Of a stretch of 39,287 nt of DNA, positions 1-39,287 are shown in pieces (within the stretch, counting starts at the first letter, position 1; each line of letters begins with the position of its first letter). The DNA comes from Escherichia phage vB_EcoP_PAS61. Below the pieces are notes generated by a model. The model did no database searches, had not been told where the DNA came from, and worked only from the letters and a program-made list of their open reading frames with translations. The translations under genes and the position numbers were made by a program. The stretch lies in the sequence record OQ921333.1. One strand, 5' to 3'.

Positions 1-150
1 TTTCCGGTGACGGTATATAAAACGGTACGAGGAAAATTGAGTTTTTGAAAAATGTTATCACTCAATTGGTTATGGTGTCCGTAAATAATTGAGTGGGAAT
101 GATTAACAGCTAACTCATAGCAACTCATTCCTATTCAGATAGTAATTTAA

Positions 151-181
151 CCCTCTGTTTTTACAGGGGGTTTTTGTTTTT
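151..181 (+). terminator. Rho-independent terminator-like hairpin (CCCTCTG / CAGGGGG) followed by TTTTTGTTTTT; would end a + strand transcript entering from the left
   Basis: Stem-loop with U-run seen directly in sequence. Confidence 0.45.
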
Positions 182-237
182 ATGTATTCATTTCTATTCA
201 CTCTACACCATATTTTTCGGCGGTACAGGTGACGGTA

Positions 238-252
238 TTACCTTAAAGGTAT
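238..252. promoter_or_regulatory. TTACC-N5-GGTAT near-palindrome (14/15 match to the dispersed TTACC-N5-GGTAA motif) overlapping a TATACT -10-like hexamer upstream of int
   Basis: ttaccttaaaggtat at 238-252; tatact at 250-255. Confidence 0.35.
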
Positions 253-294
253 ACTCTCATACCGTCATGAAAATGGTTTCTATACGGGTGAATT

Positions 295-1551
295 GTGCTT
301 ACCGATACAAAATTAAAAAACCTCAAGCCGCAGGACAAACTGTACAAGGTCTCCGATCGTGACGGGCTGTATGTAGCTGTGCTTACGTCAGGAACGGTCT
401 CGTTTCGCTATGACTACCGTATCAACGGTCGCCGCGAAACACTGGTAATCGGGCAGTATGGGCGTGACGGTATCAGTCTGGCAGAAGCGCGAGAAGAACT
501 GATTGCTGCAAAGAAGCTGCTTAAAGCAGGCCAGTCGCCGGCTGCGGCTAAACGTGACGGTATCAAAAAGATTCGTGGTGCCGAGACGTTTGCGGTACAT
601 ACCGACAGTTATATGAAACACGTCATCCTGGCTGACAGTACCCGCGCAATGAAGCAGTCGGTGATCGACCGTGACATACTTCCGGTTCTTGGCAACAAAA
701 TGATGGCTGAAATTACCACATCGATGGTTCGTGATTTGTGTGACCGGATTGTCGAACGCGGTGGCCGTGCAACAGCAGTACAGGCCAGGGAGATCATCAG
801 CAGCGTATACCGTCACGCCAATGACCGTGGTCATGGTTTGTTTAATCCTGCGGCTGACATTAAACCTTCGTCTATCGCCATATTTAAACCACGAGAGCGA
901 ACACTGACACCAGAAGAAATTGGCCTGTTCTTCCGCACGCTGGATGCCATTGGTGCTATGGGCACTATGAAAATGGCTTTAAAGCTGGTGCTTATCACTA
1001 TGGTTCGTAAAGGCGAATTCACTAATGCAACGTGGGACGAAATAGATTTTAAAAAATGGACATGGACAATTCCTTCAGACCGCATGAAGGGAAGCCGGGC
1101 GCACGTTATTTACCTGCCTAAACAGGCACAGGATATATTGGTTGGGTTGCAGATGTGCGCTGGTGGAAGTGAATATCTGGTTCCTGGTCGTTACAATTTC
1201 CGGAAGCCATTATCTAATGCCGCGCTGAACTCTCTGATCGACAGAACGGTGAAAATAATAAATGAAGATGGTGAGCATATTCAGGACTTCACCGTACACG
1301 ATATGCGCCGTACAGCAAGTACGTTGTTGCATGAGGCTGGTTATCCTTCAGACTGGATTGAAAAGGCTCTGGCACATGAGCAGAAAGGTGTGCGCGCCGT
1401 ATATAACAAAGCGGAATACGCCAGACAGCGCGCCTACATGTTGCAGCAGTGGGCCGATATGATTGATTCCTGGATTAACGGGGAGCATACGGATCTGATT
1501 CCGTTCTCCCCGTCGAAGTTTGAGAGGTGGATGGAAGACAGTAATAAATAA
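295..1551 (+). CDS. int: Tyrosine site-specific integrase (P4-like family), GTG start
   Basis: 418 aa ORF; N-terminal LTDTKLKNLKP...YKVSDRDGLYV motif typical of P4-type integrases; C-terminal HDMRRTASTLL...Y catalytic region; located at the prophage end. Confidence 0.9.
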   Translation: MLTDTKLKNLKPQDKLYKVSDRDGLYVAVLTSGTVSFRYDYRINGRRETLVIGQYGRDGISLAEAREELIAAKKLLKAGQSPAAAKRDGIKKIRGAETFAVHTDSYMKHVILADSTRAMKQSVIDRDILPVLGNKMMAEITTSMVRDLCDRIVERGGRATAVQAREIISSVYRHANDRGHGLFNPAADIKPSSIAIFKPRERTLTPEEIGLFFRTLDAIGAMGTMKMALKLVLITMVRKGEFTNATWDEIDFKKWTWTIPSDRMKGSRAHVIYLPKQAQDILVGLQMCAGGSEYLVPGRYNFRKPLSNAALNSLIDRTVKIINEDGEHIQDFTVHDMRRTASTLLHEAGYPSDWIEKALAHEQKGVRAVYNKAEYARQRAYMLQQWADMIDSWINGEHTDLIPFSPSKFERWMEDSNK

Positions 1552-1553
1552 TT

Positions 1554-2213
1554 CTATCCTTCCTGGACTTTGGTAAGCGTCAGATTTCCGCAGAACACTG
1601 CGCCGGTGTCGATGTACATCTGGTTTGCATACACCAGTGGGTGATGTGCTGGCGTATGACCGAAGATGAACAAATCGGCACCGGTTATCTCCGAGACAAT
1701 ACCGTCCTGCGCGTCGCTAACCCGCTCACGATTCCATATCACCATTTCTTCTGGTACTGGCTTATCGAATGCGTATTCGTTGTGCGGGTAGTCTGCGTGA
1801 CAGATGACGACCTTCTTATTGCCGGTAACCAGTTCGATAATCATCGGGAGGTTGGTAATCTTTGGCAGAAGGTATTTGAGTTGCACATCCTGCTCAGAAT
1901 CAAGTTGGTGCCACCATCCACCGCCGTTTGACATCCAATGTCCGAAACTTCCGCCGTTGACCAGTGCATCCAGCATCATCTGCTCATGGTTGCCACGAAC
2001 AGCTCGGAACCACGGCATAGTAATCAAATCCAGGCATTCGACGTTTTCAGCGCCGCGGTCAACAAGGTCACCAACGGAAATAAGTAAATCGCGCGCCGGG
2101 TCGAATGAAACTTTGTCGAGTTCGTTCATCAGCAGCGTGTAGCACCCATGCAGATCGCCGACGACGAAGATATTGCACCAGTCAGCGCCATTGATGCGTT
2201 GATATAGGTTCAT
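1554..2213 (-). CDS. Serine/threonine protein phosphatase (calcineurin-like metallophosphoesterase, lambda PPase-like)
   Basis: GDLHGC, GDLVDRG and GNHE metallophosphatase motifs; start chosen at internal ATG 2213 whose codon overlaps the upstream gene stop (ATGA), GGGAG RBS. Confidence 0.8.
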
Positions 2214-2860
2214 GCTGCACGCTCCCGCCCCTGGTTGTCTATTGGTGACACCGGAGCATTGCTGAATGCATTTGTTAATCCGCCAATATCCAACGCGTAT
2301 CCAGGGTGTAGTTGCACTGCCGGGTCTTCGCACTGATTACCCCAAACATCGAAGCCATGAGACGTCTGGCGGGCGAACAGTTCAATGCGAGAAACATCGC
2401 CTAACAATTGCACAAGTTTTTCACGAACGACATCTGGTTTTCTTGAATGCTCAAGCCGCGGTGCGGTAAATGACTGAACGATCCATGCATTAATGCGTGG
2501 AGGTAGTTTTCCCTTTACTGCAAACAGGCAATCTTCACTATTGGCGCGAGTCATGTGTCCCATACCCATAACCAGTTTATCTGGTTGTCGACTACCACAT
2601 TTTATCCACGTGAAGCCCTTCATGGTCATCAGACGGAATCCCCAGGCTTCAACAACTTTTAGCGCTTCGAGTGGTTGTGTTGGCACCCACCACATGGCCA
2701 ACAGACAGTTTTCATCGGCCAAATCCCACACAGGAAGGCGGCAGATGTCCATCACACTCATAACCGGATATTTAAAACTGGCACCGCGATTACCATCTGC
2801 GGCTTTGTCCCGGTATACCCAGGGTGGATCTGCATAGATTAGTGTGTATTTCTTAGTCAT
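2210..2860 (-). CDS. MT-A70 family N6-adenine DNA methyltransferase
   Basis: 216 aa; DPPW motif (IYADPPWVY) characteristic of MT-A70/Dam-like N6-adenine methyltransferases. Confidence 0.8.
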
Positions 2861-3152
2861 AAACCACCCCGCAACATCCTATACCGCTATAGTCTCCACG
2901 GCGAAGGCCGTTACCTTTTGTGATACATTGGTCCCTGCGAACCGCGATCCTTGCACGCTCAACATCACCAGAAGCAACATCCATACACTGAAGCCAAAGG
3001 TGAGCGGCAATGCGGAACTGCCCTTTTTTCTCTCTTTCAATCGCGCGTTTTTCGATCTCTATCGCCGCAGGAGTAACGGCGACAATCTTTGACGGACTGC
3101 GCATTGAAACCTTATTCATGTGATATTTTTCAAGTCGGCTTAACTTTCTCAC
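2853..3152 (-). CDS. Hypothetical protein (early-left operon)
   Basis: 99 aa ORF overlapping the methyltransferase start by 8 nt; GTG start with GAGG upstream; no recognisable motif. Confidence 0.4.
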   Translation of the reverse strand: MRKLSRLEKYHMNKVSMRSPSKIVAVTPAAIEIEKRAIEREKKGQFRIAAHLWLQCMDVASGDVERARIAVRRDQCITKGNGLRRGDYSGIGCCGVVYD

Positions 3153-3261
3153 TTAATCCAACCCTCTCTGAAAATTAATGCCAGCAGATAAAGCCATGCT
3201 GAAACAGAGGCCAGGAATAAGTACCATCCTGACCATTTGATCCAGTGCCTTAGCAGCGCAC

Positions 3262-3510
3262 TCATGCAGCGTTGCTCACGGGACGATATACACGTTGCTG
3301 AACAGGAGGTTTTTTACCCTGGAACTCTGCCGGGCTTGCTGCCTGACGTTCATCAAGCCAACGCTCAACTTCGTCACGGTTCCATGCGCAGCGTTTGTCA
3401 GTGATATACCAGCGTTTAGGAAATTCCCCTGCGCGCTCCATACGGTCGATAGTGCTCCATGACAGTGGCACCACCGCCAGGAGTTCCTTCTTACCTAATG
3501 CACCTTTCAT
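3262..3510 (-). CDS. AlpA-family HTH regulator / excisionase-like protein
   Basis: 82 aa; LSWSTIDRMERAGEFPKRWYITDKRCAWNRDEVERWL resembles AlpA/Xis-type winged HTH proteins. Confidence 0.65.
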   Translation of the reverse strand: MKGALGKKELLAVVPLSWSTIDRMERAGEFPKRWYITDKRCAWNRDEVERWLDERQAASPAEFQGKKPPVQQRVYRPVSNAA

Positions 3511-3559: not shown

Positions 3560-4441
3560 TTACATAGATGTTTCGTTTAATTCTTCCCGACGAACGCTGT
3601 AAACGTCGGTGGCTTTTGCCAGTAGTTCGTCATCATCTGAAAGTTTTTGTGCAATGTATTTGTAAGCCTTATCCAGTTCGGAGACAGTGCTGTAATTCAT
3701 CGCTGCGCTGGTAAAGGCCATCAGCATTTCTTCTGGATCACGGCTATCCGCTTTACGCGTTTGCTCATCAGGCTTTTTCACTGGTTTAGCGTTGATCAGA
3801 CTGTTCATTCCCGCAGCAGTAGTTGTTTGCGGAGTAATGTCTCGTTCAACGCGCGGTGTCGTTTCCTGTAATTCGTCAGGGGTGTAAACACCGAGAAGTA
3901 CATCAGGAGCGTGCAGACGAGCCCATCGTTTCGTGCAAAGATAGGCAAGTTGCTGGCGCGGATCCTGTTCCCACAATGGAGAGTTACGCACTCCGGCTTG
4001 CGCCATACTGATGGTAAGCTCACGTGGTTCTGCTTCTCCTTTAAGAACTGCTGACACAGTTACCGTCAGATTCGGTGATTTATCTGTTTTGCCGTTAACA
4101 TTCGACCAGTCACCGCTCCAGCGATAATTCAGGCGTGTCGCTAGCAGGCTGGAAGAGGATACGACCGCGTTTACCAACTGTGCTTCGTAGCCTAACGTTC
4201 CGTTTACCACATGCGTTTTCTGCGCCACGGCGAAAGGGTTCATTCCCCACTGTGCCGCCTGCATGGTCACCGCCAGGCAATCGGCAGGTTTGCCTTCAAG
4301 ATGTTTCGGTACAGTCGCTTTGCTTTGTGACATCAACTCCGCGAAACGCACCAGTTGATTCATGCCCTCGGGGCTGAAGATTGCCGCAGCAGTGCCTACA
4401 GTTGCGCCTGGTTGTGATGTGATTGCGATATCATTGCTCAT
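3560..4441 (-). CDS. RecT/Red-beta family single-strand annealing protein
   Basis: 293 aa; segment VERDITPQ recalls the lambda Bet C-terminal region (from memory); paired with an upstream exonuclease via ATGA overlap. Confidence 0.55.
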   Translation of the reverse strand: MSNDIAITSQPGATVGTAAAIFSPEGMNQLVRFAELMSQSKATVPKHLEGKPADCLAVTMQAAQWGMNPFAVAQKTHVVNGTLGYEAQLVNAVVSSSSLLATRLNYRWSGDWSNVNGKTDKSPNLTVTVSAVLKGEAEPRELTISMAQAGVRNSPLWEQDPRQQLAYLCTKRWARLHAPDVLLGVYTPDELQETTPRVERDITPQTTTAAGMNSLINAKPVKKPDEQTRKADSRDPEEMLMAFTSAAMNYSTVSELDKAYKYIAQKLSDDDELLAKATDVYSVRREELNETSM

Positions 4442-5259
4442 ACGTACATATCCTGTTTACGTGCCCAGTCAGGGCGTTTAATAATTTCCACTCCGCCCCA
4501 TTCATCGTTGATGCGGCATTCGTGATAGGTATTCAGATCCCGGCGGAACAGAGCGTGCCCGGCATCGACATCCGGCGCATCCAGCTCGAACACGCGTACC
4601 GGATACCGACCACAATCAATGCTTTCGCTCACGGCAAGAAAGAAAAAACCATGCGGCTGACCAGTAACCCTCATTGCGCCTTCGCGGTACATTGCGTCCT
4701 GCACGTGGTAGCGGAATTCCTCGATGTGGCGTGCAAAACGGTCCATATCTGCAACCTTTTTCACGTCGACGATCACGTTGTGCTCGTTCAGCCATTTGTC
4801 TGGACGAATTCGGCACAACTCACCCGTCTCTTCATCGTTCCAGTACATTGATGCTTCGCAGTAACCAGGTGCTTCCAACATCCAGCGCGCCGCCGGATGA
4901 GCCATTGCGCTATCACGCATCAGCTCCAGTTTTCGCCACTGCTCGACATCAAGTACCGTAATACCCATATCCGCCACATCACGAAGAAATGCTTCTTCGT
5001 GAGCTTTACCTTGTTTTGTCCGACGATCGAATTTCGGTGAAACGATGAAGCGTTTGTCGAATTCTCCAGGCTCCAGAAGCAGACAGTGCAATGCGGTTCC
5101 CATATCCAGTGCAGACTTTTTCTCTTCGTCTTCTGGTGCTGCCTGAACCCATTTAAGAAGCGCCGGATTCTTGGCAACCATGTCCAGTTGCGACTTACTC
5201 ACGCCGTCACCGGCGTGGTAGTCTTCGTTGCTGATGTCGAAATAAATTCCCGGCTTCAT
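4438..5259 (-). CDS. PD-(D/E)XK exonuclease (RecE/YqaJ-like recombination exonuclease)
   Basis: 273 aa; DISNEDYH N-terminus, GTALHCLLLE and VIVDVKKV (D-x-K) motifs typical of PD-(D/E)XK phage exonucleases. Confidence 0.7.
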   Translation of the reverse strand: MKPGIYFDISNEDYHAGDGVSKSQLDMVAKNPALLKWVQAAPEDEEKKSALDMGTALHCLLLEPGEFDKRFIVSPKFDRRTKQGKAHEEAFLRDVADMGITVLDVEQWRKLELMRDSAMAHPAARWMLEAPGYCEASMYWNDEETGELCRIRPDKWLNEHNVIVDVKKVADMDRFARHIEEFRYHVQDAMYREGAMRVTGQPHGFFFLAVSESIDCGRYPVRVFELDAPDVDAGHALFRRDLNTYHECRINDEWGGVEIIKRPDWARKQDMYV

Positions 5260-5729: not shown

Positions 5730-5806
5730 TTACCGTTGAGGTAATAATCATGCGTATATGGTTTGATGTCAATAGATATGAGTTAAAAAAATTACCCGTT
5801 AGGTAA
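5730..5806 (-). promoter_or_regulatory. Early-left promoter region (pL-like): minus-strand -35 TTGACA (5772-5767), -10 GATTAT (5749-5744), flanked by two TTACC-N5-GGTAA operator-like palindromes (5730-5744, 5792-5806)
   Basis: Hexamers and palindromes read directly; 17-nt spacer. Confidence 0.5.
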
Positions 5807-5812
5807 TCGAAT

Positions 5813-5841
5813 AGGCAATAAAAAAGCCGCCATAAGGCGGC
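5813..5841 (-). terminator. Rho-independent terminator downstream of the repressor gene (GCCGCC-ATAA-GGCGGC followed by U-run on minus strand)
   Basis: Perfect 6-bp GC stem with flanking A/T run. Confidence 0.55.
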
Positions 5842-5863
5842 TTACTTACTGAAAAATATGGTT

Positions 5864-6448
5864 TTATTGTTTGTTTTTTTCGTTCTGGTTGATGACAAAT
5901 TCAATGTAACTTTCGATCTTTGCTTTCTCGGTTTCGGGTAACAATGCGTAGCGCGAGCGATCATAGTTGATGGTCGCAGGGTCGTGCGGGTGAATCAGTA
6001 ATTCATAGCCGTGACGCCCGAATGCGGATGCAACATTCTCCAGGGTGGAAATGGAAACGCTGACCTCATTGTTTAACAGGCGGCTGATTGTCACCTGGGC
6101 TACGCCGGATGCGCGGTGAAGTTTTCCCTGTGTTGAAAGGTCGCGGCTTTCGCTCATCCAGCGTTCCAGGTTGTGAGCCGCCAGCTGGCCAATGTCGCTT
6201 GGGCCGACAGGCTGAAAACCTTCCTGAGAAAGCGAGCGATCGATATCAAGCCAGTTACGGGGTTTATTGGCGGCAGCTTCAATTTTTCGCGCAACCTGGT
6301 CGCCGATAACCTTCTTGCCAAGAGCCCAGCGGTTTACCAGATTTGCCTGAGTTCCAAGTTTTTCTGCCATCCGCGTCTGAACACCATTGAATTCACGGTC
6401 GATCAAGTCGTTGAGATTTTGCCTGCGGACGTCCTGGATACTTTTCAT
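5864..6448 (-). CDS. Putative prophage repressor (CI-like role) with two helix-turn-helix regions; no obvious LexA-like S24 peptidase domain
   Basis: 194 aa; HTH-like segments GVQTRMAEKLGTQANLVNRW and GKLHRASGVAQVTISRLLNNE; divergent from a Cro-like gene across an operator-rich intergenic region. Confidence 0.55.
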   Translation of the reverse strand: MKSIQDVRRQNLNDLIDREFNGVQTRMAEKLGTQANLVNRWALGKKVIGDQVARKIEAAANKPRNWLDIDRSLSQEGFQPVGPSDIGQLAAHNLERWMSESRDLSTQGKLHRASGVAQVTISRLLNNEVSVSISTLENVASAFGRHGYELLIHPHDPATINYDRSRYALLPETEKAKIESYIEFVINQNEKNKQ

Positions 6449-6503
6449 TTTCTGGAAAATCGCCTCATATATGAATCGGTAGATGATTCAATTTAAAGCA
6501 ATA

Positions 6504-6590
6504 TTACCCAACAGGTAAATGCACCCCATAGGTAACTATCCTTGATTTTTGTTACCTTATGGGTGAATATTTATTATCTGAAATAAATAT
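6504..6590. promoter_or_regulatory. Divergent immunity promoter/operator region (oR-like): TTACCCAACAGGTAA (6504-6518), inverted GGTAAC/GTTACC half-sites (6524-6566), TTGATT -35-like hexamer (6542-6547), AT-rich palindrome TATTTATT-N6-AATAAATA (6568-6589)
   Basis: Motifs read directly from sequence between the repressor (-) and Cro-like (+) genes. Confidence 0.5.
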
Positions 6591-6602: not shown

Positions 6603-6833
6603 ATGAGCGATAACGGACATTTCGATTTCAAAAAGCACTGGCTTGCACTTACTCCGGATGAGCGTGAAGCCTTCGCACAGGAAGCCGGAACGACGAGTCA
6701 CTATATCCAGACTCACTTAACAGGTAAGCGCAAAATGCCAGGTAAAGTATTGATGAATGGGCTTTTTAAAGCCTGTAAATCAAGACAATGGTTGCGCTCA
6801 AAAGCAGAACTGGCATACTTCTTCTACTCATGA
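6603..6833 (+). CDS. Putative Cro-like early regulator (position-based call)
   Basis: 76 aa ORF transcribed divergently from the repressor immediately after the operator region; weak HTH-like segment. Confidence 0.4.
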   Translation: MSDNGHFDFKKHWLALTPDEREAFAQEAGTTSHYIQTHLTGKRKMPGKVLMNGLFKACKSRQWLRSKAELAYFFYS

Positions 6834-9262: not shown

Positions 9263-9323
9263 ATCGACGATCTTTTTAGTTATCAATGTAATCAATAAGT
9301 TATGTGGATAAGCGAGGGTAAAG

Positions 9324-10564: not shown

Positions 10565-10565
10565 G

Positions 10566-10757: not shown

Positions 10758-10758
10758 C

Positions 10759-12346: not shown

Positions 12347-12395
12347 CATGTCACGAGTAGATTATGCATGATGAATTTGATGGGTTTTGAATACT

Positions 12396-12421
12396 GCCGC
12401 CAACTATGGCGGCTTTATTTT
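12396..12421 (+). terminator. Rho-independent terminator (GCCGCC-AACTAT-GGCGGC + TTTATTTT) between early-right and late genes (tR'-like position)
   Basis: Perfect 6-bp GC stem plus U-run. Confidence 0.6.
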
Positions 12422-30036: not shown

Positions 30037-30041
30037 ATTAA

Positions 30042-32516
30042 ATGAGACAGGAATGTATACAAGCGGTCCAGCAGGCGGCGCAGCGCACGTTAACGGCGCG
30101 AGAAATACAGAACATTGAAGACCGCATTTATCGAAATATGCGCTCCATTGCTCGTGATGACCCGATGTCGTGGAGACAACTTTCCGAATCAGAGCGGCTA
30201 TATCGTGCAGCACAATTGGCATCTGAAGAATTACAGCGAGAAGCGGCATTAAAGAAACGTCGTGTGGCCCTCACTATAGCCGCACGTCAGAGATTGGATA
30301 AATTTATCAATAGCTATCAAGGGGCTGATGGGAAACTTGGCGCTCTTAACCGTACTATTGCTTTTAATGCAGACGGTAAATCGAATTTCCTCTCTGTTGA
30401 GTCCAGAACAAAAGCCACTCGTGATTATGCATTGAGTCAATTGCAGGAGGCATTCGAAGCAGTTGATCCTCGCTTTTTTGTTCTGTTTGAAGATGAAGCG
30501 GGCGTACGTGACCTGGTATATGAAATGCGAGGGCAAAATACTGGCAATGCTAAAGCAAGAAAAGGTGCTAAGGCGTGGAGAGAAGTGACAGATCTACTGC
30601 GCCGCCGGTTTAATGATGCTGGTGGGGACATTGGCTATCTCGAAAACTGGGGGATCCCTCAACATCATTCTATGGAAAAGGTTGGGGCGGTATCAAAGGA
30701 TAAGTGGGTTAGCGATGTTATAGGTAAGCTGGATCGCAAATATTATATCCGAGCCGATGGACAACTGATGAACGATGCCGAGTTGTCTGCATTTCTTGGA
30801 GAGGCTTATAACACGATCGCTACTGGTGGGCTGAATAAGCTTACTGATACCGGAATGCGAATTTCCGGCGCACGTGCTAACCGTGGTAATGCATCACGAC
30901 AGATACATTTCAAAGATGCAGATTCCTATCTGCAATATCAGCAACTTTATGGCGATCGCTCTCTATGGGAAATCATAGTCGGTCACCTGGAAGGTATCAG
31001 TAAAGATATTGCACTGGTGGAAACATATGGCCCAAACCCCGATCATGTTTTCCGCTCTCTTCTTGATCAGGTTAAGGCAGAAACGGCAACTGCTAACCAG
31101 AGTAAAACCGGTAAAGTCGAGCGGCTGGCGAACAACACAGAGAATCTGTACAACTTTATTTCCGGAAAGACACAGCCTGTAGCGAATCCGCACATCGCGC
31201 GATGGTCTGACAATATCCGCAACTGGCTGGTTGCCAGCAGACTCGGATCCGCGTTGCTGTCATCGTTCTCTGATCTTGGAACCATGTATCTGTCTGCGAA
31301 GGTTACCAACCTTCCAATGAACCAGTTATTCCGCAACCAGCTTGAAGCTATGGACCCAACGAACCGTACAGAACTTGCGCGGGCGCGCCGCGCTGGTCTG
31401 GCGATGGAATCTCTACTTGGCAGCGTTAACCGCTGGGCGATGGATAATATGGGGCCGTCAGTGTCTCGTTGGGCGGCAACGGCGGTAATGCGTGCCAGTG
31501 GGCTTACAGCATGGTCAGATGCGCACAAGCGCGCCTATGGCGTAACCATGATGGGAAGCCTGGGAGAAGTAGTGTCACGGACACCAGACCTTCGTAGCCT
31601 CGATGACTCTGATTTTCGTATCCTGAAAAGCAAAGGGATTACTGACACAGACTGGAGCGTATGGAAGTTGGCGCAACAGGAGGACTGGGGGAACGGTAAT
31701 AATACGATGCTGACACCGGAAAGCATTATGCGTATCCCTGATTCAGCAGTTAAACATCTTGGTGAGCCTGAACGCGTGAAATTTGAGGCAATGCGTAAAC
31801 TGCTCGGTGCCGTAACTGAAGAAGTTGATATGGCTGTTATTACACCGGGAGCACGTGAGCAACTGATAACCGGTTCTGGTATTCAGCGTGGAACATGGAA
31901 AGGTGAATTAACGAGAAGTGTTTTCCTGTTTAAATCGTTCCCTATCTCGGTTGTTATGCGTCACTGGTCACGCGCTATGGGTATGCCGTCTGCTGGTGGG
32001 CGTGCGGCATATATTGCGACGTTTATTGCCAGTACGACCATTCTTGGCGCTTTGTCGCAGCAACTTAACGACCTTGCGTCTGGTCGTAATCCTCGAGAGA
32101 TGACAGGAGAAGATGCCGCAAAATTCTGGCTTGGTGCTCTACTGAAAGGTGGTGGTCTTGGCCTTTACGGTGACTTTTTATTGTCAGATCACACTAGGTA
32201 CGGAAGCGGCGCGCTGGCATCGATGCTTGGCCCGGTAGCTGGTCTGGTTGATGACGTAGTGAAGATTGCTCAGGGCATACCGTTAAATGCTGTGGAAGGG
32301 AAGAATGAGCAGACTGGTGGTGATCTGGTTAAGCTGGGGAAAGGTCTGATGCCAGGTGCGAATCTCTGGTACTTAAAGGCGGCTCTCGATCACATGATCT
32401 TTAACCAGATGCAGGAGTATTTTTCACCAGGTTATTTGCGTAAAATGGAGCAACGTTCGAAGAAAGAGTTTAACCAGACATACTGGTGGCGACCACAGGA
32501 TGTCACTCCGCAATAA
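30042..32516 (+). CDS. Internal virion/DNA-ejection protein
   Basis: 824 aa; last gene of the injection block, followed by terminator. Confidence 0.55.
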   Translation: MRQECIQAVQQAAQRTLTAREIQNIEDRIYRNMRSIARDDPMSWRQLSESERLYRAAQLASEELQREAALKKRRVALTIAARQRLDKFINSYQGADGKLGALNRTIAFNADGKSNFLSVESRTKATRDYALSQLQEAFEAVDPRFFVLFEDEAGVRDLVYEMRGQNTGNAKARKGAKAWREVTDLLRRRFNDAGGDIGYLENWGIPQHHSMEKVGAVSKDKWVSDVIGKLDRKYYIRADGQLMNDAELSAFLGEAYNTIATGGLNKLTDTGMRISGARANRGNASRQIHFKDADSYLQYQQLYGDRSLWEIIVGHLEGISKDIALVETYGPNPDHVFRSLLDQVKAETATANQSKTGKVERLANNTENLYNFISGKTQPVANPHIARWSDNIRNWLVASRLGSALLSSFSDLGTMYLSAKVTNLPMNQLFRNQLEAMDPTNRTELARARRAGLAMESLLGSVNRWAMDNMGPSVSRWAATAVMRASGLTAWSDAHKRAYGVTMMGSLGEVVSRTPDLRSLDDSDFRILKSKGITDTDWSVWKLAQQEDWGNGNNTMLTPESIMRIPDSAVKHLGEPERVKFEAMRKLLGAVTEEVDMAVITPGAREQLITGSGIQRGTWKGELTRSVFLFKSFPISVVMRHWSRAMGMPSAGGRAAYIATFIASTTILGALSQQLNDLASGRNPREMTGEDAAKFWLGALLKGGGLGLYGDFLLSDHTRYGSGALASMLGPVAGLVDDVVKIAQGIPLNAVEGKNEQTGGDLVKLGKGLMPGANLWYLKAALDHMIFNQMQEYFSPGYLRKMEQRSKKEFNQTYWWRPQDVTPQ

Positions 32517-32525
32517 GGATGAGAA

Positions 32526-32666
32526 ATGATTGCTTTTATTCTTGTTGTGTTTGCGCTTGTTGCACTTGGCGTTATGAACCGTAAATGTATCATTGACGAT
32601 GGCGAATTTGCTGTTGCAGTTATTTTGATATTATCTGGTGTAGCAGGGTACATAGGCTTGTCATAA
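32526..32666 (+). CDS. Small hydrophobic membrane peptide (46 aa)
   Basis: Hand translation MIAFILVVFALVALGVMNRKCIIDDGEFAVAVILILSGVAGYIGLS; AAGGA RBS 6 nt upstream; below ORF-track cutoff. Confidence 0.4.
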   Translation: MIAFILVVFALVALGVMNRKCIIDDGEFAVAVILILSGVAGYIGLS

Positions 32667-32686
32667 CGTGAGCGTGACATGTCACA

Positions 32687-32712
32687 GGCCGCTTTCGCGG
32701 CCTTTAAATTTA
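32687..32712 (+). terminator. Rho-independent terminator (GGCCGC-TTTC-GCGGCC + U-rich tail) ending the injection operon
   Basis: Perfect 6-bp GC stem plus U-run; GTGACATGTCAC palindrome directly upstream. Confidence 0.6.
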
Positions 32713-32967
32713 CCGGGTTTGTTTTCGTAATTGTTCGGCACAATAGTCGAGATGTGTTTGCAGATCCTGCATAGACATCTGTGAGCTGGTGACGTAGTTA
32801 ATCAGTGCAGTCAGTTCGGCAAGTGGGCCATCGACATTAAATCCATCCTTATCGAGATCCCGGAGTAATTTCATCAAGTGCGATCCATCCACCAGTGACC
32901 TGACGCCTCCCGGCGTGTGAATCCTTTCGGTAAATCCGTCTTCCAGTGGATAGTGATACTGCTGCAT
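32710..32967 (-). CDS. Moron gene of unknown function (85 aa) with its own promoter/operator
   Basis: Start moved to internal ATG (MQQYHYPLEDG) with GGAG RBS; upstream 41 codons of the track ORF run through AT-rich regulatory sequence. Confidence 0.5.
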   Translation of the reverse strand: MQQYHYPLEDGFTERIHTPGGVRSLVDGSHLMKLLRDLDKDGFNVDGPLAELTALINYVTSSQMSMQDLQTHLDYCAEQLRKQTR

Positions 32968-33004
32968 CTTATCTTCTCCATGCAATAACTGTATATTTAT
33001 ACAG

Positions 33005-33098
33005 TAGCAAATAATTTGTTTGCTATCCAGCACGTTTTGCAAATTACCAGAAAGGTAATATCTATTCTTATTCACAGTCTTTCTATCCATATGTGGTT
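33005..33098. promoter_or_regulatory. Regulatory region between moron and tailspike: perfect palindrome TAGCAAA-N7-TTTGCTA (33005-33025), TTACCAGAAAGGTAA (33044-33058), CATATGTGGTT (33088-33098)
   Basis: Motifs read directly. Confidence 0.45.
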
Positions 33099-33162
33099 TT
33101 TCAGGTAATAGAATAACTAGATATGCGGCGCAACGGGTGCTGCGACTATCTGGAGATTTAAC

Positions 33163-35400
33163 ATGACGGTCTCAACCGAAGTTGACCACAACGAATACAC
33201 AGGTAACGGCGTTACAACATCATTTCCGTATACCTTTAGGGTTTTCAAGGAATCTGATCTGGTAGTACAGGTGGTTGACTTGAACGAGAATATCACTGTG
33301 CTGGTTCTTGATACTGATTACACAGTTACAGGGGCTGGAGGATATAACGGCGGCAATGTAATTCTGTCGAAGGCGTTGGCTAACGGTTATCAGATTTCTA
33401 TATCACGAGAGCTGCCGGTTACGCAGGAAACAGATCTACGCAATCAAGGCAAGTTCTTTGCAGAGGTGCATGAGGATGCGTTTGATAAGCTAACGATGTT
33501 GATCCAGCAGGTTAGAAGTTGGTTTAGCTTGGCGCTTCGCAAGCCGTCATTCGTGGCAAACTATTATGATGCGCTTAACAATTACATCAGAAATTTGCGT
33601 GACCCGTTACTTCCGCAGGATGCTGCAACAAAGAATTATGCTGATGAGCTTAGCGCAAATAACACGTCACACACTGATTTTCTCTTTAGCAGAACGCTGA
33701 GAACTGCGGAAGAAATACCACAACTACCTTCCATTGAGTTCAGAAGAAACAAAATCATCGGGATGGATAACGATGGCAATCCGATAATGCTTGTTCCTGA
33801 GTCAGGATCAGCTTCTGATGTTTTAATTGAGTTGGCAAAACCAACTGGTGCTTCATACATAGGGATCCCTAAAGGAGGGTTTCTATCAGACGTTTTATAC
33901 TATTCCACCCCTAAAGAATTCGGTGGGGTTGGCGATGGTATTACTGATGATACGGCAGCGATTGTTGCAGCAGTAAATACCGGATTGCCATTGGTCTTAT
34001 GTGGTGGTAAATGGCGGATAACATCCACTATAGAGCTTCCTGATTGTTATGCAGTGGACGCAAGATGTTCTCACATTATAGCTGATACCGGTTTTCAGCC
34101 TGTTTTTTTATTTAAGGGAAAAAACTATGGGCTTCATTATGCTGGTGGTCTTGTAACAGGAACCGCCAGTTCATTCATGTATATTGAAGGTGAGACTGAC
34201 GTTCCTACGACCAGTAACCAATATGCAAAATTGGTTGAGTTGTATGGTGTGAATATTTCTTCAAAAACCATTATAACCTCACTGATAATGAAAAAAGCAG
34301 TTCGGCAGATATTTATTGATTCATGTTTTTTCTACTCTAAAAATGGCATTGAAGCAGAGGGAAAAACAGTTGAGATTACAATTGACAAATCAATAATATA
34401 CGGTTCAACAGCAGACACTGACAGTTTTGGCATCAAGCTTTCTAGCACAGGTGGAACCAGGTTTTACAACGAAGGATGGCATATTTCAGATTCTACTATT
34501 GATAACTTTGCTAACACGCTTGATTTGGCTGATATATTTGTATTTACAGTTAGTAAAGGTTATGTTGCATGCAATGCGACAACGGCATATGCTGTTACTA
34601 TCAGACCACCAACCACAACAACGCATACTCGAGAAATTCAATTTGATGGTGTTCTTGGCGGAAAAATTAGATTTCTTGATACAGTTTCTGGTCAGACAAT
34701 ATTTCACACAAAAATTTCTGGTGAGATTACAAACTGCAAACAGGGAACTTGTCTTTCCATAGGAGCAAATGCCGCAGGAATTGATATTAGAAGCCTGAGA
34801 GTTACTTCCTCACCTGGATGTACATTATCATCAGTAGCAAATGGATCAGCAAACATTAATTATTCTGATATTTCTACTGATTCATCTTTGGCTGCAGGTA
34901 TTATCTTCAATGGTGAAGCAGGTGGTAATTGCTCAATATCAGACTACCTGTACTCAGGGACTGGAGAGGCGTTATCACTTGCTAGGCCGGTTAAGCTTTC
35001 CAATGTTCCTACAGTTGGTAGCGAAACTTTGAATTGGTCTATAAAGTACGATTATGTATCTGCATCAAAAGATGTCGCAGTTGGAGCATACATAAACCAA
35101 CTTCAAATGACTATTGCAAGATATAGTAAGATAGAGATCAATATAAATCTTTCATATTCTGGGGGCGCAGAGAGCAATGCCCAGGCAATTGGAATAACAG
35201 CTCCTACTGGAGTGGTTCTGCCAAATGGTACAAACTCGATGCTGTTCACATTACCAGCAACGGCGGGATCATTGACTATGAGCATTGTTGCTACAACAAC
35301 GCTAGACTTCAAGAACCTGTCATTCAGCATCGATAACAGAGCTGGTAACCAACTGCGGATTTTGGCCGGTTCCCACTTGTCTGTATCGCTGGCTAACTGA
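33163..35400 (+). CDS. Tailspike protein: T7 gp17-like N-terminal adaptor domain plus beta-helix (pectate-lyase-like) receptor-binding/depolymerase body
   Basis: 745 aa; N-terminus TGNGVTTSFPYTFRVF...DTDYTV; GGVGDGITDDTAAI motif typical of right-handed beta-helix tailspikes; AT-rich. Confidence 0.75.
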   Translation: MTVSTEVDHNEYTGNGVTTSFPYTFRVFKESDLVVQVVDLNENITVLVLDTDYTVTGAGGYNGGNVILSKALANGYQISISRELPVTQETDLRNQGKFFAEVHEDAFDKLTMLIQQVRSWFSLALRKPSFVANYYDALNNYIRNLRDPLLPQDAATKNYADELSANNTSHTDFLFSRTLRTAEEIPQLPSIEFRRNKIIGMDNDGNPIMLVPESGSASDVLIELAKPTGASYIGIPKGGFLSDVLYYSTPKEFGGVGDGITDDTAAIVAAVNTGLPLVLCGGKWRITSTIELPDCYAVDARCSHIIADTGFQPVFLFKGKNYGLHYAGGLVTGTASSFMYIEGETDVPTTSNQYAKLVELYGVNISSKTIITSLIMKKAVRQIFIDSCFFYSKNGIEAEGKTVEITIDKSIIYGSTADTDSFGIKLSSTGGTRFYNEGWHISDSTIDNFANTLDLADIFVFTVSKGYVACNATTAYAVTIRPPTTTTHTREIQFDGVLGGKIRFLDTVSGQTIFHTKISGEITNCKQGTCLSIGANAAGIDIRSLRVTSSPGCTLSSVANGSANINYSDISTDSSLAAGIIFNGEAGGNCSISDYLYSGTGEALSLARPVKLSNVPTVGSETLNWSIKYDYVSASKDVAVGAYINQLQMTIARYSKIEININLSYSGGAESNAQAIGITAPTGVVLPNGTNSMLFTLPATAGSLTMSIVATTTLDFKNLSFSIDNRAGNQLRILAGSHLSVSLAN

Positions 35401-35507
35401 TGATGTTATGACATGGATGTCAAATGATTCAGCGTATGAAATGGAATGGTAGTCGCTTTCGTGCTATAACCTGCTGATTCGTTTACTGAGCAGACTTGAA
35501 CATTGTA

Positions 35508-37364
35508 ATGAAAGTTAATAACTTCAGATATGACATTAACGGATTAAGGGCATTAGCAGTTATCTCTGTTGTTGCTTATCATTTTTCTGCAGACTTCCTT
35601 CCTGGTGGATTTGTCGGTGTTGATGTATTTTTTGTCATATCCGGGTTTTTGATGACCTCAATTATTTTTAGAGGAATTAGCAATAATAACTTTTCTGTCT
35701 TTAATTTCCTGAAAGCCAGAGCGAAAAGGATAGTCCCTGCGCTAACATTTGTTGTTGGTTTGGTGCTGATCGGCGGATATCTTTGTTTTGATGCTATGTC
35801 ATATAAAATAGCTGGAGACCATGCGCTTTCAAGCCTGCTATTCTACTCTAATTATTTTTACGAGGCTGAAGCTGGGTACTTTGATGCTGAATCAAAAGCA
35901 AAGGTTCTTCTTCATACCTGGTCACTATCTGTTGAGTGGCAGTTTTATATAATATATCCGATTGTCTTGTTTTTCCTGAGCAAGGTAATTTCATTAAAGC
36001 AGTTAAAGATATTTATACTGGTGCTTGCCATAGCATCTTTTTCTTATTGCGTGTATGTGACAAAAGTAAACCCCATATCGTCTTACTTCATGATATATAG
36101 TAGGGCTTGGGAAATGATGCTCGGTGGCATCGCTTTTCTATACCCATTAAATGTTAATGAAAATAAGCGAAGATACATTGAATTCATTGGGCTGGCACTC
36201 ATAGTTGTTTCAATGATGGCAATTGATGATAAAACACCGTGGCCTGGAAAGATGGCGCTAATACCTGTCCTTGGTGCCTATCTTGTCATTCTTGCAAAAA
36301 GCAATAACACAATCCTGTCTGGAGAATTAATAAATAGACTAGGGCTGTGGTCTTATTCAATATATCTTATTCATTGGCCTGTGCTTGTTTTTTCACATAA
36401 AATGAACGTGGATTTACCATTTATATGGTATTTTTCATTTGTATTGATATTCTCATTTATAACATATGAGATAATTGAAAAAAGAAGAAGTTACGGAAGG
36501 GGTGCTGTTTTTGTTTTCATCATGGCTGTAGCAGCGTCGTGGTACGTTGGAATAGATGGTGTTGCTGACAGGATTAATAATCAGGAATACAAAATATCAA
36601 AACCGCAATTCAGGGCAAAATACGAAGGTCACCTTGGCATTCATTCAACAGAGGAAGTTAAGTATTTCAACAGTAATGAAAATAACTTTGAATACATCCT
36701 TATTGGTGATAGCCATGCCAGACACTACTATGCCTACATTCAGGATTCAGGTGCTAAGGTTGCATCGTTCGCAGTTGATGGGTGTGAGGTAACAAAGCAC
36801 TTTATGAGTCCCATTGGATGGTCAGAGAAGACAAGAGCTATGTGTGCCAGCAGGTATAAAAAAGCCGTTGACTTCATTAACTCACATCCAGGAAAGCCGG
36901 TTATATGGTCCATGCTATGGAGGGGTGGCGTGATCGGTGAGCCAATAAACGATGGTGAAACAAATCCAAACGACATTATCAGTGAGATGGCATTCTTCCT
37001 GGAAGACATCAAATCCTCTGGTTCTTCGCTATTTATTATTGGAGACACTCAGGGCAGTGACAGAATTATGTTCGAGTGTCTTGCAGGGCAAGATCTGCCA
37101 ATCAATAAGATACTTAATCGCTGTGAAACGACTCAGAAGGAAAAGAAATTCCCTATAAGTGAACGGTTTAAAGAATTTGCATCGAAGCACAGCAATGTTC
37201 ATTTTATCGATCCTACGCCAGCGTTATGCCGCGATGGTGAGTGCGTGATTGTTTATGATGGTATGCCTGTATATACCGATAACGATCACTTTACTAAACA
37301 ATGGTCTATTAATGTCGGTTCATTCATTTTCAATAAAATCAGAGAAACTCAACATACTGATTAA
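35508..37364 (+). CDS. Acyltransferase-3 family membrane O-acetyltransferase with C-terminal SGNH domain (OafA/Oac-like; likely O-antigen acetylation)
   Basis: RYDINGLRALAV..VV.YHF N-terminus typical of acyltransferase 3; multiple TM segments; C-terminal GDSHA SGNH motif; alternative TTG start at 35496. Confidence 0.85.
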   Translation: MKVNNFRYDINGLRALAVISVVAYHFSADFLPGGFVGVDVFFVISGFLMTSIIFRGISNNNFSVFNFLKARAKRIVPALTFVVGLVLIGGYLCFDAMSYKIAGDHALSSLLFYSNYFYEAEAGYFDAESKAKVLLHTWSLSVEWQFYIIYPIVLFFLSKVISLKQLKIFILVLAIASFSYCVYVTKVNPISSYFMIYSRAWEMMLGGIAFLYPLNVNENKRRYIEFIGLALIVVSMMAIDDKTPWPGKMALIPVLGAYLVILAKSNNTILSGELINRLGLWSYSIYLIHWPVLVFSHKMNVDLPFIWYFSFVLIFSFITYEIIEKRRSYGRGAVFVFIMAVAASWYVGIDGVADRINNQEYKISKPQFRAKYEGHLGIHSTEEVKYFNSNENNFEYILIGDSHARHYYAYIQDSGAKVASFAVDGCEVTKHFMSPIGWSEKTRAMCASRYKKAVDFINSHPGKPVIWSMLWRGGVIGEPINDGETNPNDIISEMAFFLEDIKSSGSSLFIIGDTQGSDRIMFECLAGQDLPINKILNRCETTQKEKKFPISERFKEFASKHSNVHFIDPTPALCRDGECVIVYDGMPVYTDNDHFTKQWSINVGSFIFNKIRETQHTD

Positions 37365-37465
37365 GATCCCTCCGTTATTTGGTATCTAGGTAACATGTAA
37401 CCACATATGGTTTATAGTGTATGATGAACTCACCAACTAAGGGGGTTCTTCATGCACATTAAACG

Positions 37466-37879
37466 GTGGTCGTTATGTCAGCCGGGCTAACCAGTGAGTC
37501 TTTAAATCAGTGGCTTAGCATGGGTTCGCTTGCTGCGGTAATCGCAGGAGTTCCGCCAGAGGTGGCGCTCGGCGCTCTGGCGGGTGCGGTAATTTTTGTT
37601 ACCTCGGCAGTCGAATACCCGATCCGCCGCCGGGTTCTCCTGTCGGTGCTCAGCTTCTTCTGCGGCCTTCTCTTCTACAAACCCACAGCAACATTCCTCA
37701 TCGGATTAGCTTCCTCTTTCCCTGGCATCACCACAGATATGTTTGAGAAAGGGGTTGCGTACTCAGCCGGCGCTTTCGTGTCAGCAATCGTCGCAGTGCG
37801 CATTGGCATCTGGCTTTATCACCGTTCCGACAATCCACGCGAGTTAATCCCGGGGAGAAAAGACGATGGTAACGCATGA
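37466..37879 (+). CDS. Holin-like membrane protein
   Basis: 137 aa with several hydrophobic helices, first gene of lysis cassette; GTG start (alternative ATG at 37475). Confidence 0.55.
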   Translation: MVVMSAGLTSESLNQWLSMGSLAAVIAGVPPEVALGALAGAVIFVTSAVEYPIRRRVLLSVLSFFCGLLFYKPTATFLIGLASSFPGITTDMFEKGVAYSAGAFVSAIVAVRIGIWLYHRSDNPRELIPGRKDDGNA

Positions 37880-38174
37880 GTTTTTTTTGCTTATCACCAA
37901 TGCAGTTATTTGTACTGGCATAGCAATTCGTGTTGTCACATTCCGGCGTAACGGATCTCAACATCGAAGATGGGGGGGGTGGCTTGCTTATTTCCTGATT
38001 GTTGCTGCGGCCAGTATTCCGGTTCGTGTTGCCTATGCAATCTGGTTCCGCACGCCAATGGCTGTGGATTTATCTGAGGTCATTATCAACGCTGTCATGC
38101 TCGCTGCGGTTATTAAAACGCGCGGTAACGTCGTTCAAATTTTCAAAGTATCGAGGTCTAAACATGGAGATTAA
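37866..38174 (+). CDS. Second small membrane protein (holin/antiholin-like)
   Basis: 102 aa, about 3 hydrophobic segments, overlaps neighbours at both ends. Confidence 0.5.
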
Positions 38175-38793
38175 ACAATTCCAGCGAGCTGCTGGTATTA
38201 GCGAGGCGCTGGCCGCACGCTGGTTCTCGCATATAACTTCTGCGATGAAAGAGTTTGGTATCAGCAAACCAGAAGATCAGGCAATGTTTATTGCTCAGGT
38301 CGGGCATGAGTCTGGAGGCTTCACCCGGTTGCAGGAAAATTTCAACTACAGCGTCACCGGACTGGCTAACTTCGTTCGTGCCGGTCGTCTCACTCAGGGA
38401 CAAGCCAACGCACTGGGTCGCCGTGCTGGTGAACCACCATTGCCACTCGAGCGCCAGCGCGCGATCGCAAATCTGGTATACAGCAAACGCATGGGGAACA
38501 ATGCCCCCGGCGATGGCTGGAATTACCGAGGTCGCGGACTTATCCAGATTACCGGTTTGAATAACTATCGTGACTGCGGAAACGGCTTGAAAGTGGACTT
38601 GCTGGAGAATCCTGAACTGCTGGCGCAGGACGAATACGCGGCTCGTAGCGCGGCGTGGTTCTTTGCCAGCAAAGGATGCATGAAGTATACCGGTGATATT
38701 GCACGTGTAACTCTGATTATCAATGGTGGCCGGAACGGCATCGACGACCGGCGCGCGCGGTACGTCACTGCCAGTAAGGTGCTGGCTATATGA
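38164..38793 (+). CDS. Endolysin, glycoside hydrolase family 19 (chitinase-like lysozyme)
   Basis: [17 protein letters not shown]19 signature and [12 protein letters not shown] region; start moved to ATG after GAGG. Confidence 0.8.
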
Positions 38794-39287
38794 TCTGGGC
38801 ATTCGTAAAAGCATATTGGAAACAGCTGCTTATCGTGTTGATGCTTGCTGCTCTGTTCATCGTCGGAGTGGTTGCCTGGAATATACACGGCAGCCGCCAG
38901 TACGATGCCGGGTATGCGCGGGCACAGGAAGATCAGAAACAGGCTGATGATAAGGCCAGGTCACAACGTGATCAGGAGAAAACACAAATTGAACGTGAAG
39001 CACAATACCGTATCGATGTGGCGCGTGTTGATGCTGAGCATGCTAATGCCGCTGCTGACAGCCTGCGCGCCGAGCTTGACAAAACCAAGCGACTCGCCGA
39101 ACACTATACCGGATCTTTCCCCACTGGCACGCCAGCCAGCAAGGTCATCGGTGTGCTCGCCGACATGCTTGAAGAAAGCAATCGAGTTTACAACGCAACA
39201 GCAGCTGAGGCTGAAAAGTATCGGATTGCAGGAGAATCCTGCGAACAGCAATACGATTCACTGAAGAAGCAAAAATCGTGGCACTGA
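38790..39287 (+). CDS. Rz-like i-spanin
   Basis: N-terminal TM segment then charged coiled-coil region; ATGA overlap with endolysin stop; embedded Rz1-like ORF. Confidence 0.7.
39016..39264 (+). CDS. Rz1-like o-spanin lipoprotein embedded in +1 frame of Rz
   Basis: Signal/lipobox [17 protein letters not shown] followed by Pro-rich segment; start codon uncertain (39016 or 39031). Confidence 0.5.
   Translation: MWRVLMLSMLMPLLTACAPSLTKPSDSPNTIPDLSPLARQPARSSVCSPTCLKKAIEFTTQQQLRLKSIGLQENPANSNTIH

Follow-up and report, generated by a model that had tools for sequence, protein, structure and literature searches.

Escherichia phage vB_EcoP_PAS61, a probable temperate serotype-converting podovirus of the phiV10/epsilon15 lineage with a mosaic genome

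The 39,287-nt genome of Escherichia phage vB_EcoP_PAS61 (sequence record OQ921333.1, to which all coordinates refer) combines early genes of “lambdoid” appearance with a virion module of “T7-like” appearance, which raises the question of whether it is a fusion of two kinds of phage or a member of an established lineage. Both “PAS61” and “the window” denote this whole stretch. An earlier reading of the DNA, here called the original prediction, described such a mosaic and named the temperate podoviruses of the epsilon15/phiV10/SPN1S type as the group that it resembled. The group named was right, and every gene class listed in that reading was found in PAS61 through Pfam and related matches. PAS61 is, with a probability of about 0.93, the complete genome, in its circular, phage attachment site (attP) form, of a temperate, serotype-converting E. 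coli podovirus of the phiV10/epsilon15 lineage, and its mosaic architecture is ancestral to the whole genus and not a new fusion.

The placement is carried first by DNA comparison. In megablast searches against 50,697 phage records, PAS61 was 97-98% identical over ~80% of its length to phiv142-3, vB_EcoP_ZX5 (ZX5), HEMP4, TL-2011b and phiV10, five phages which cover 81-88% of its first 25 kb and 63-77% of its last 19 kb; Salmonella phages of the SPN1S/SPC32H type and Enterobacter phage Tyrion had ~78-82% DNA identity. Intergenomic similarity, calculated in the manner of VIRIDIC, was 78.2% for phiV10, 78.1% for phiv142-3, 75.5% for ZX5 and 73.9% for HEMP4, or ~74-78% for phiV10 and its E. coli relatives overall. 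Under the rule of the International Committee on Taxonomy of Viruses, a genus member shares at least 70% nucleotide intergenomic similarity with another member, and on nucleotide similarity PAS61 is assigned to the phiV10 lineage, genus Uetakevirus. Since every similarity value is below 95%, PAS61 is a separate species-level genome within the phage collection compared.

The gene order of PAS61 is colinear throughout with the phiV10 and epsilon15 records. The five close phages share with it the order of the genes, the attP core, the guaA site and the immunity, replication, head, tail and lysis modules, and epsilon15 and SPC32H/SPN1S have the same architecture and virion protein families, although epsilon15 has an intergenomic similarity to PAS61 of only 36.7%. 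The solved capsid, portal and tail proteins closest to those of PAS61 all come from podoviruses (BPP-1, epsilon15, Carin-1 and LME-1), with no best match among siphoviruses or myoviruses, and homology to these solved tails points to a short-tailed (podovirus) virion.

That the genome is temperate and complete follows from its attachment site and from prophages in E. coli draft assemblies. The features concerned are:

88-104: attP core ATTGAGTGGGAATGATT, 17 bp, found by direct reading to be identical to the 3' end of guaA; int follows ~190 bp downstream
295-1551, plus strand: P4-type tyrosine integrase, int (Pfam Arm-DNA-bind_3, Phage_int_M and Phage_integrase), colinear with phiV10 p31

The sequence ATTGAGTGGGAATGATT is also the attP core of phiV10, epsilon15 and ZX5 (PMC9782041), and the P4-type integrase would insert the phage through it at the 3' end of guaA. 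The exact 745-aa tailspike of PAS61 is listed in 601 blocks of an assembly collection, and the contigs that were read are E. coli draft assemblies with the acyltransferase gene downstream. One of these (contig L002) carries a prophage with 100% identity to window 27163-39287, followed by window 1-104 and then by the host genes yfgI, yfgH and yfgG, themselves 100% identical to E. coli; the crossover lies exactly at the core, at position 104. Because this contig runs from position 39287 straight into position 1, the ends of the record are joined, and the PAS61 genome is therefore complete, written as the attP circle. Its host is E. coli, and the integration site is the guaA 3' end. The prophages in E. 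coli drafts are 99.99-100% identical to PAS61 over the parts compared (14902-39287).

The virion module, in which the resemblance to T7 was seen, consists of the following features:

12387-14533, plus strand: small (Terminase_2) and large terminase subunits (PF03592; PHROG 2), not of T7 type
15937-18144, plus strand: portal protein of the T7 gp8 family (PF12236), matching the Carin-1 portal 8ck0 at E 7e-224
18141-21345, plus strand: head module with Bbp19-like, protease/scaffold-like, capsid, Bbp16 cement, gp9-like and gp10-like decoration proteins (PF25181, PF20911, PF21190, PF21628; PHROG 458)
19150-20136, plus strand: major capsid protein, matching those of BPP-1 (3J4U, 1e-128) and epsilon15 (3J40)
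20153-20172: hairpin right after the capsid gene, with a 7-bp stem and without a U tract
20988-21011, plus strand: terminator-like GC hairpin with a UUCG loop followed by UUUAUU, by sequence and fold, two genes beyond the first post-capsid hairpin
21345-21950, plus strand: tail adaptor, 201 aa, with a predicted T7 gp11 (tubular protein A) fold
21950-24421, plus strand: tail nozzle, 823 aa, matching the Carin-1 Tail Nozzle 8ck1_A at E 2e-216; putative counterpart of T7 gp12 (tubular protein B)
24421-32516, plus strand: five ejection/internal virion proteins (IVPs), namely IVP-A (154 aa), IVP-B (181 aa), a 935-aa muralytic protein, a 600-aa protein and an 824-aa IVP-D candidate (PHROGs 308, 418, 992, 1145 and 684)

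When 17 PAS61 virion proteins were compared by BLASTP and phmmer with 14 T7 proteins (from NC_001604), nothing significant was found, and since this pairwise search was empty the link to T7 was examined through profiles and folds. The portal scores 825 bits against PF12236, compared with 379 bits for T7 gp8 itself, and 21% of its final 80 residues are Gln, the tail of T7 gp8 being similarly rich in Q, M and A; a gp8-like portal with a Gln-rich C-terminus had been predicted and is indeed present. The AlphaFold2 model of the adaptor, which has a predicted local distance difference test score (pLDDT) of 86.6, matches the Carin-1 connector (2.6e-16) and, over its full length at 13% identity, T7 gp11 (7box_N; E 4e-6, template modelling score 0.59) in Foldseek, so that the gp11-like tail gene of the original prediction is borne out at the level of the modelled fold; no sequence match to the gp11 family PF17212 was found in this protein. 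For the nozzle, a profile of 33 diverse relatives was taken from a representative search (the closest-homologue search gave only sequences at least 82% identical, which are unfit for a profile), and it aligned residues 321-439 with residues 350-466 of T7 gp12 over 113 columns (hhalign probability 66%, E 5e-5), while the gp12 family PF25675 had no match in the nozzle. The 181-aa IVP-B matches PF24072 (T7_gp14) with 31.2 bits against a cutoff of 27, the 154-aa IVP-A reaches the gp13 family PF11090 only below threshold (E 0.088), and neither gp15 nor gp16 had a sequence link to PAS61 proteins in the pairwise and Pfam searches.

These results are in keeping with those of Hardies et al., who reported hidden Markov model (HMM) comparisons that link tail and ejection proteins of epsilon15 and T7, among them a significant match in the same nozzle region between the epsilon15 and T7 groups (HMM-HMM E < 1e-10), and who identified homologues of IVP-A, IVP-B and IVP-D in epsilon15, with gp17 as IVP-D, could not confirm IVP-C there, and placed the epsilon15 terminase and capsid with siphovirus-type lineages (PMC4819975). 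In PAS61 detectable deep homology to T7 is found only in the portal, the adaptor, the nozzle and the gp14-like ejection protein; the portal, adaptor, nozzle and ejection proteins would be deep homologues of T7 gp8, gp11, gp12 and gp14, and probably of gp13 and gp16. The capsid and terminase belong to PF20911 and PF03592, compared with PF21703 and PF22530 in T7, and the T7 terminase domain PF22530 had no match in the PAS61 terminase. The large terminase subunit has no sequence relative in PDB, and the epsilon15 record notes HHpred matches of its terminase to terminases of the Sf6 type. By sequence the capsid is of the epsilon15 gp7/BPP-1 type (PF20911), with Bbp16-type cement and gp10-type decoration proteins, and the non-T7 terminase would package DNA into such an HK97-fold capsid reinforced by the cement proteins. 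The description of the virion as “T7-like” thus stands for the portal-tail-ejection block, as deep homology and synteny, and fails for the capsid, the cement proteins and the terminase.

T7 has the same order of portal, scaffold-position gene, capsid, adaptor, nozzle, internal proteins, fibre, holin and Rz/Rz1, shares Pfam families with PAS61 for the portal and gp14, and aligns with it in the central nozzle domain. PAS61 differs from T7 in its added cement/decoration proteins, in its unrelated terminase, which is placed upstream, in its tailspike, which is a beta-helix protein where T7 has a fibre, and in being temperate (integrase, repressor and attP) without a phage RNA polymerase, its largest early open reading frame (ORF) being the 418-aa integrase.

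The composition of the genome could be attributed to a lambdoid phage having recently recombined with a T7-like one (Autographiviridae), since one arm carries a lambda P homologue, a NinI-type phosphatase and ea genes and the other a gp8-family portal and a gp14-family protein. Such a novel chimera is, however, very improbable and is already contradicted by the evidence above: the arrangement is common end to end to phiV10, epsilon15 and SPN1S, no T7 protein is significantly similar in pairwise comparison, no early ORF is of the size of an RNA polymerase, and the capsid and terminase are in non-T7 families. Least probable of all is that PAS61 belongs to the P22-like Lederbergvirus, a second type of temperate podovirus that is common in enterobacteria and converts the O-antigen. 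With this type it shares EaA/Ead-type genes (90-96% DNA identity with P22 and ST104), and its acyltransferase is 31% identical to BTP1 GtrC; the families matched by its portal, capsid, adaptor, nozzle and ejection proteins are instead those of epsilon15, BPP-1 and Carin-1, and for the DNA of the structural half the only matching records were of the Uetakevirus type.

The intrinsic terminator predicted shortly after the capsid region was found only in part. A simple scan gave no canonical terminator directly after the capsid gene, where the hairpin at 20153-20172 lacks a U tract; the terminator-like hairpin at 20988-21011 lies two genes later, at a position corresponding to that of a rho-independent terminator annotated in the epsilon15 record.

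Two further observations concern proteins of this module. Public data contain a very great number of members of the nozzle family (E <= 0.001 for 18,312 clusters formed at 50% identity), and over nozzle residues 220-304 (22607-22861) the family profile matches the receptor-binding domain of a short-tailed cyanophage tailspike (7eea_A, E 7e-9), which suggests that this segment is an inserted surface domain. The 935-aa muralytic internal virion protein contains a 330-bp insert (26135-26465; ~104 residues, positions 243-346), which is absent from phiV10, ZX5, phiv142-3, HEMP4 and epsilon15 and present in the near-identical E. coli prophages.

The early half of the genome, for which the label “lambdoid” had been used, contains, in addition to int and the immunity genes:

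1554-2333, minus strand: NinI/PrpA-type Ser/Thr protein phosphatase (Pfam Metallophos; NCBIfam PRK11439, E 3.4e-79); maximal ORF, the true start probably being internal
2210-3510, minus strand: MT-A70 adenine methyltransferase, PerC-like activator and AlpA-like excisionase/regulator (PF05063, PF06069, PF05930)
3262-3510, minus strand: the AlpA-like Xis of this group (PF05930)
3560-4441, minus strand: RecT annealing protein (PF03837)
4438-5259, minus strand: PD-(D/E)XK (RecE-like) exonuclease (PF12684)
7200-8015, plus strand: initiator with HTH_36 and DnaT domains (PF13730, PF17948)
7498-7636: iterons inside the initiator gene, tandem repeats with five copies of CCCAAAAACGG against 0.63 expected
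7997-8797, plus strand: lambda P homologue (PF06992, 1.5e-56)
8915-12346, plus strand: accessory ea/nin-like block with DUF1064, Ea22-like, DUF551/EaA, DUF4752, an ASCH homologue and an epsilon15 gp49-like regulator (Pfam)

The P4-like integrase, AlpA-like Xis and RecT/exonuclease pair of the original prediction were each matched by Pfam. Its O/P-like replication genes hold for P and for the presence of iterons in the initiator gene, although the initiator itself combines HTH_36 and DnaT domains and is not lambda O; replication would use this initiator with its internal iterons together with a lambda-P-type helicase loader. Lambdoid phages have the same order of int, xis, recombination genes, repressor, cro position, O/P and accessory genes, and lambda has its iterons inside the O gene as PAS61 has them inside the initiator gene. 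PAS61 departs from lambdoid phages in a repressor that has no S24 domain and is predicted to be inactivated by an antirepressor, Ant, and in probable operators spread across at least six intergenic regions; its lysis cassette, moreover, lies after the tailspike at the far end of the late operon, whereas that of lambdoid phages lies between Q and the terminase genes. No match to the N or Q family was found among the proteins scanned. “Lambdoid”, like “T7-like”, is a loose label.

The phosphatase gene, which adjoins int, has 78.8% DNA identity to the ppp/NinI genes of the lambdoid phages phi80 and HK225 and is not present in phiV10, ZX5, phiv142-3 or HEMP4. Window 9476-12008, which holds the Ea22-like, DUF551/EaA, DUF4752 and ASCH genes, is 90-97% identical at the DNA level to Stx-converting phages, 933W, P22, ST104 and phage 21. 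Recent lambdoid exchange is real but local, affecting genes of the ea type, and the NinI-type phosphatase is a lambdoid link of a more distant kind.

The immunity region was expected to encode a CI/Cro-like pair, and its relevant features are:

5864-6448, minus strand: Rep repressor, 194 aa, with two helix-turn-helix regions (Pfam), matching SPC32H Rep (5D50_A, E 4e-42)
6603-6833, plus strand: small ORF in the Cro position, divergent from rep, homologous to phiV10 p41, with no Pfam match
5730-6566: rep region, in which putative operators TTACC-N5-GGTAA at 5730, 5792, 6504 and 6552 flank rep
32710-32967, minus strand: Ant antirepressor, 85 aa, matching SPC32H Ant (5D50_E, E 1e-46)
32989-33004: SOS box CTGTATATTTATACAG, a perfect CTGT-N8-ACAG, 22-37 nt upstream of ant
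33044-33058: putative Rep operator TTACC-N5-GGTAA upstream of ant

A divergent helix-turn-helix repressor and a small rightward ORF are present as expected; the CI-like mechanism is not. The Pfam scan found no S24 peptidase (autocleavage) domain in Rep, and the matches to SPC32H Rep and Ant, together with the SOS box, argue that immunity rests on a Rep/Ant pair of the SPC32H type and not on CI autocleavage, the solved switch of SPC32H being conserved in PAS61. The palindrome TTACC-N5-GGTAA occurs 11 times in the genome (at 238, 5730, 5792, 6504, 6552, 8835, 8897, 12433, 12451, 15611 and 33044), where 0.67 copies are expected; the copies are mostly intergenic and ahead of operons. They flank rep, precede int and the portal operon, follow the P gene, lie where terS begins and separate ant from the tailspike gene. 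Repressor sites are annotated at several corresponding positions in the epsilon15 record, and the 11 palindromes probably serve as Rep operators, scattered across the genome in contrast to the OL/OR arrangement of lambda.

Rep binds DNA as a tetramer, which an Ant tetramer splits into dimers (PMC9638917). On this model Rep would hold lysogeny in PAS61 through the palindromes beside its own gene and before several other operons, and DNA damage would relieve LexA repression of the small Ant, which would take Rep apart. In SPC32H ant is reportedly under LexA control (Kim & Ryu 2013). A Bro-N protein, annotated as an anti-repressor in phiV10, ZX5 and phiv142-3, is missing in PAS61; the idea that the antirepressor had been lost was rejected, because the 85-aa gene matches SPC32H Ant. 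The immunity system is better annotated as Rep/Ant/LexA than as CI/Cro.

The predicted serotype conversion concerns a cassette of two genes:

33163-35400, plus strand: tailspike, 745 aa, with a conserved anchor at the N-terminus (residues 1-234) and, at the C-terminus, a receptor-binding domain specific to the lineage
35508-37364, plus strand: predicted AT3 + SGNH O-antigen acyltransferase, 618 aa (PF01757, PF19040)

Over residues 1-234 the tailspike has 80% identity to phiV10, and its first 129 residues match the Carin-1 Dpo31 anchor domain (E 3e-26); the C-terminal ~510 residues are unrelated to phiV10. Window 33647-37397, which holds the C-terminal domain and the acyltransferase gene, has 39-41% GC and by megablast matched neither the phage records nor any of 5,426 complete E. 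coli genomes, and the tailspike C-terminus matched nothing in the GTDB species representatives. Escherichia marmotae (82%) and Citrobacter amalonaticus (74%) have full-length relatives; the same receptor-binding domain is fused in E. marmotae and Citrobacter to three different N-terminal anchors, one of which (P0123) is a genuine T7-type anchor of PF03906 (E 5e-12). Six tailspikes would dock by their conserved N-terminal anchor, the recognition of O-antigen falling to a C-terminal domain that can be exchanged.

The O-antigen acetyltransferase that had been predicted corresponds to the AT3-SGNH protein, which has an amino-acid identity of 48% with the O-antigen acetylase of Tyrion and of 31% with Oac of SPC32H and GtrC of BTP1. 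An AT3-SGNH O-antigen acetylase also follows the tailspike gene in SPC32H. According to the phiV10 record, the gene at the corresponding position there acetylates the O157 antigen and confers superinfection immunity, and by this analogy the PAS61 enzyme may have the same role, modifying the O-antigen of the lysogen and so blocking superinfection. The two genes differ, that of PAS61 encoding 618 aa on the plus strand and that of phiV10 the 338-aa Oac on the minus strand; serotype conversion by epsilon15 differs again, being effected by an O-antigen polymerase and its inhibitors. The combination of this receptor-binding domain and the AT3-SGNH gene is new relative to catalogued phages.

Several points weigh against the reading of PAS61 given here, or against parts of it. 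Besides the empty pairwise comparison with T7, the link between the nozzle and gp12 is modest. The tailspike N-terminus reaches PF03906, the family of T7 fibre N-termini, only below threshold: its E is 0.017, its score 15.2 bits where the cutoff is 25.2, and the match lies mainly in residues 134-163. Of 30 family members, 14 match PF03906 at E <= 1. The AlphaFold2 model of tailspike residues 1-140, made from an alignment at 80-94% identity, has a pLDDT of 55, too poor for a reliable fold search, its weak top matches being podophage fibre N-termini at E 0.03-0.5. The acyltransferase has no sequence relative in PDB, and its nearest phage homologue is the 48% identical Tyrion protein. LexA control of ant, the acylation of O-antigen and its use as receptor enter the reading as predictions and not as direct observations. 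Finally, the portal gene contains a duplication of 176 codons which, if real, could make the phage defective.

This duplication, the one oddity of PAS61, was not part of the original prediction. It is exact, tandem and in frame: 16163-16690 (plus strand) is repeated at 16691-17218, giving 2 x 528 bp that are 100% identical and repeat portal residues 76-251, with CCGGATT to the left of the junction, CACAAGCC to its right and ~1 nt of microhomology. Because of it the portal ORF has 735 codons, compared with 559 aa in phiV10. The duplicated N-terminal segment of 176 residues is, we take it by analogy with T7 gp8, part of the portal wing domain. A 200-bp query across the junction was matched only as two separate pieces, both in all 14 matching phage records and in all 30 listed of the 523 matching records of complete E. 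coli, and the junction was absent from IMG/VR, the JGI metagenome contigs and the GTDB representatives. The normal boundary occurs in 25 IMG/VR contigs, with a single copy in 23 of 23 whose match exceeds 400 nt, and 153 billion called genes include no entry for the 735-aa portal product. Near-identical contigs were reached by using the neighbouring 935-aa protein as query; one of them (L006), which has 2 mismatches over ~23 kb (99.99% identity), has one copy and a 559-aa portal, as do 23 similar places that were read. No related sequence examined in six public collections has the duplication, which is private to the PAS61 sequence.

It is either an untrimmed overlap of a circular assembly which was later rotated into the interior of the contig or a very recent mutation, and we lean slightly towards the artefact. 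If it is a real, recent and private mutation of one prophage copy, disrupting assembly of the portal, then PAS61 as given is a defective element, an explanation which has a serious but lesser chance of being correct. It would be in keeping with the identity and common frame of the two copies, with the ~1 nt of microhomology, as in illegitimate recombination, and with a remaining genome essentially identical to intact prophages; it is opposed by the absence of the product from the called genes and of the junction from all five collections searched for it, by the single copy in 24 of 24 near-identical contigs and in the IMG/VR relatives, and by the fact that an untrimmed overlap of a rotated circular assembly would look exactly alike. 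That the duplication is real and the phage viable is improbable; were it true, it would be a natural case of a large domain duplication tolerated in a dodecameric portal. As a probable problem of sequence quality, the duplication is worth flagging before protein families are built or structural work is undertaken on this record.

Comparison with the E. coli relatives also locates the variable parts of the genome. Segments 1535-2206, 9975-10215, 10877-11229, 11283-11732, 26135-26465, 33647-37397 and 38933-39287 have no megablast match in any of four E. coli relatives, and these unmatched segments are cassette boundaries. The relatives vary in discrete cassettes: the phosphatase beside int, where phiV10 has a DUF1382 gene; the ea genes; the insert in the 935-aa protein, which like the portal duplication sets PAS61 apart from phiV10 and its E. 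coli relatives; the tailspike C-terminus with the acyltransferase; and the 3' end of the spanin gene.

The last of these belongs to the lysis cassette, which is listed here with a tRNA gene:

37475-39287, plus strand: lysis cassette with two holin-family proteins, GH19 endolysin, Rz and Rz1 (PF16931, PF05449, PF00182, PF10721)
38164-38793, plus strand: GH19 endolysin (Pfam)
38790-39287, plus strand: Rz (Pfam)
39016-39264, plus strand: Rz1, embedded in Rz in the +1 frame, with the lipobox LTAC
15212-15288, minus strand: tRNA-Arg (anticodon UCU), between the terminase and portal genes (ARAGORN; Rfam RF00005, 73 bits)

The GH19 endolysin was found as anticipated. Rz and Rz1 do form an embedded pair, but such a pair is present in T7 as well, and so it cannot serve as the lambdoid marker for which it had been taken. 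The 3' half of Rz with Rz1 (38933-39287) is an allele that differs from those of phiV10, ZX5, phiv142-3 and HEMP4; its closest matches are the fragmentary Escherichia phage records Phi05_2388 B and Phi05_1999 B (94%), followed by Tyrion and Salmonella relatives (~82%). The tRNA-Arg(UCU), which reads the rare codon AGA and was likewise not part of the original prediction, is also annotated in phiv142-3. An ORF at 15064-15282 overlaps it and is probably not a gene, and 65 matches of Synechococcus phages to PAS61 involve only the tRNA-Arg gene and were discarded as spurious.

The mosaic layout of PAS61 has already been described for epsilon15 and phiV10, and in this respect the result is mostly bookkeeping, the addition of a new species-level member to Uetakevirus. 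What PAS61 adds to the family is its tailspike receptor-binding domain and AT3-SGNH cassette, which probably marks an uncharacterised O-antigen specificity and serotype-conversion activity.

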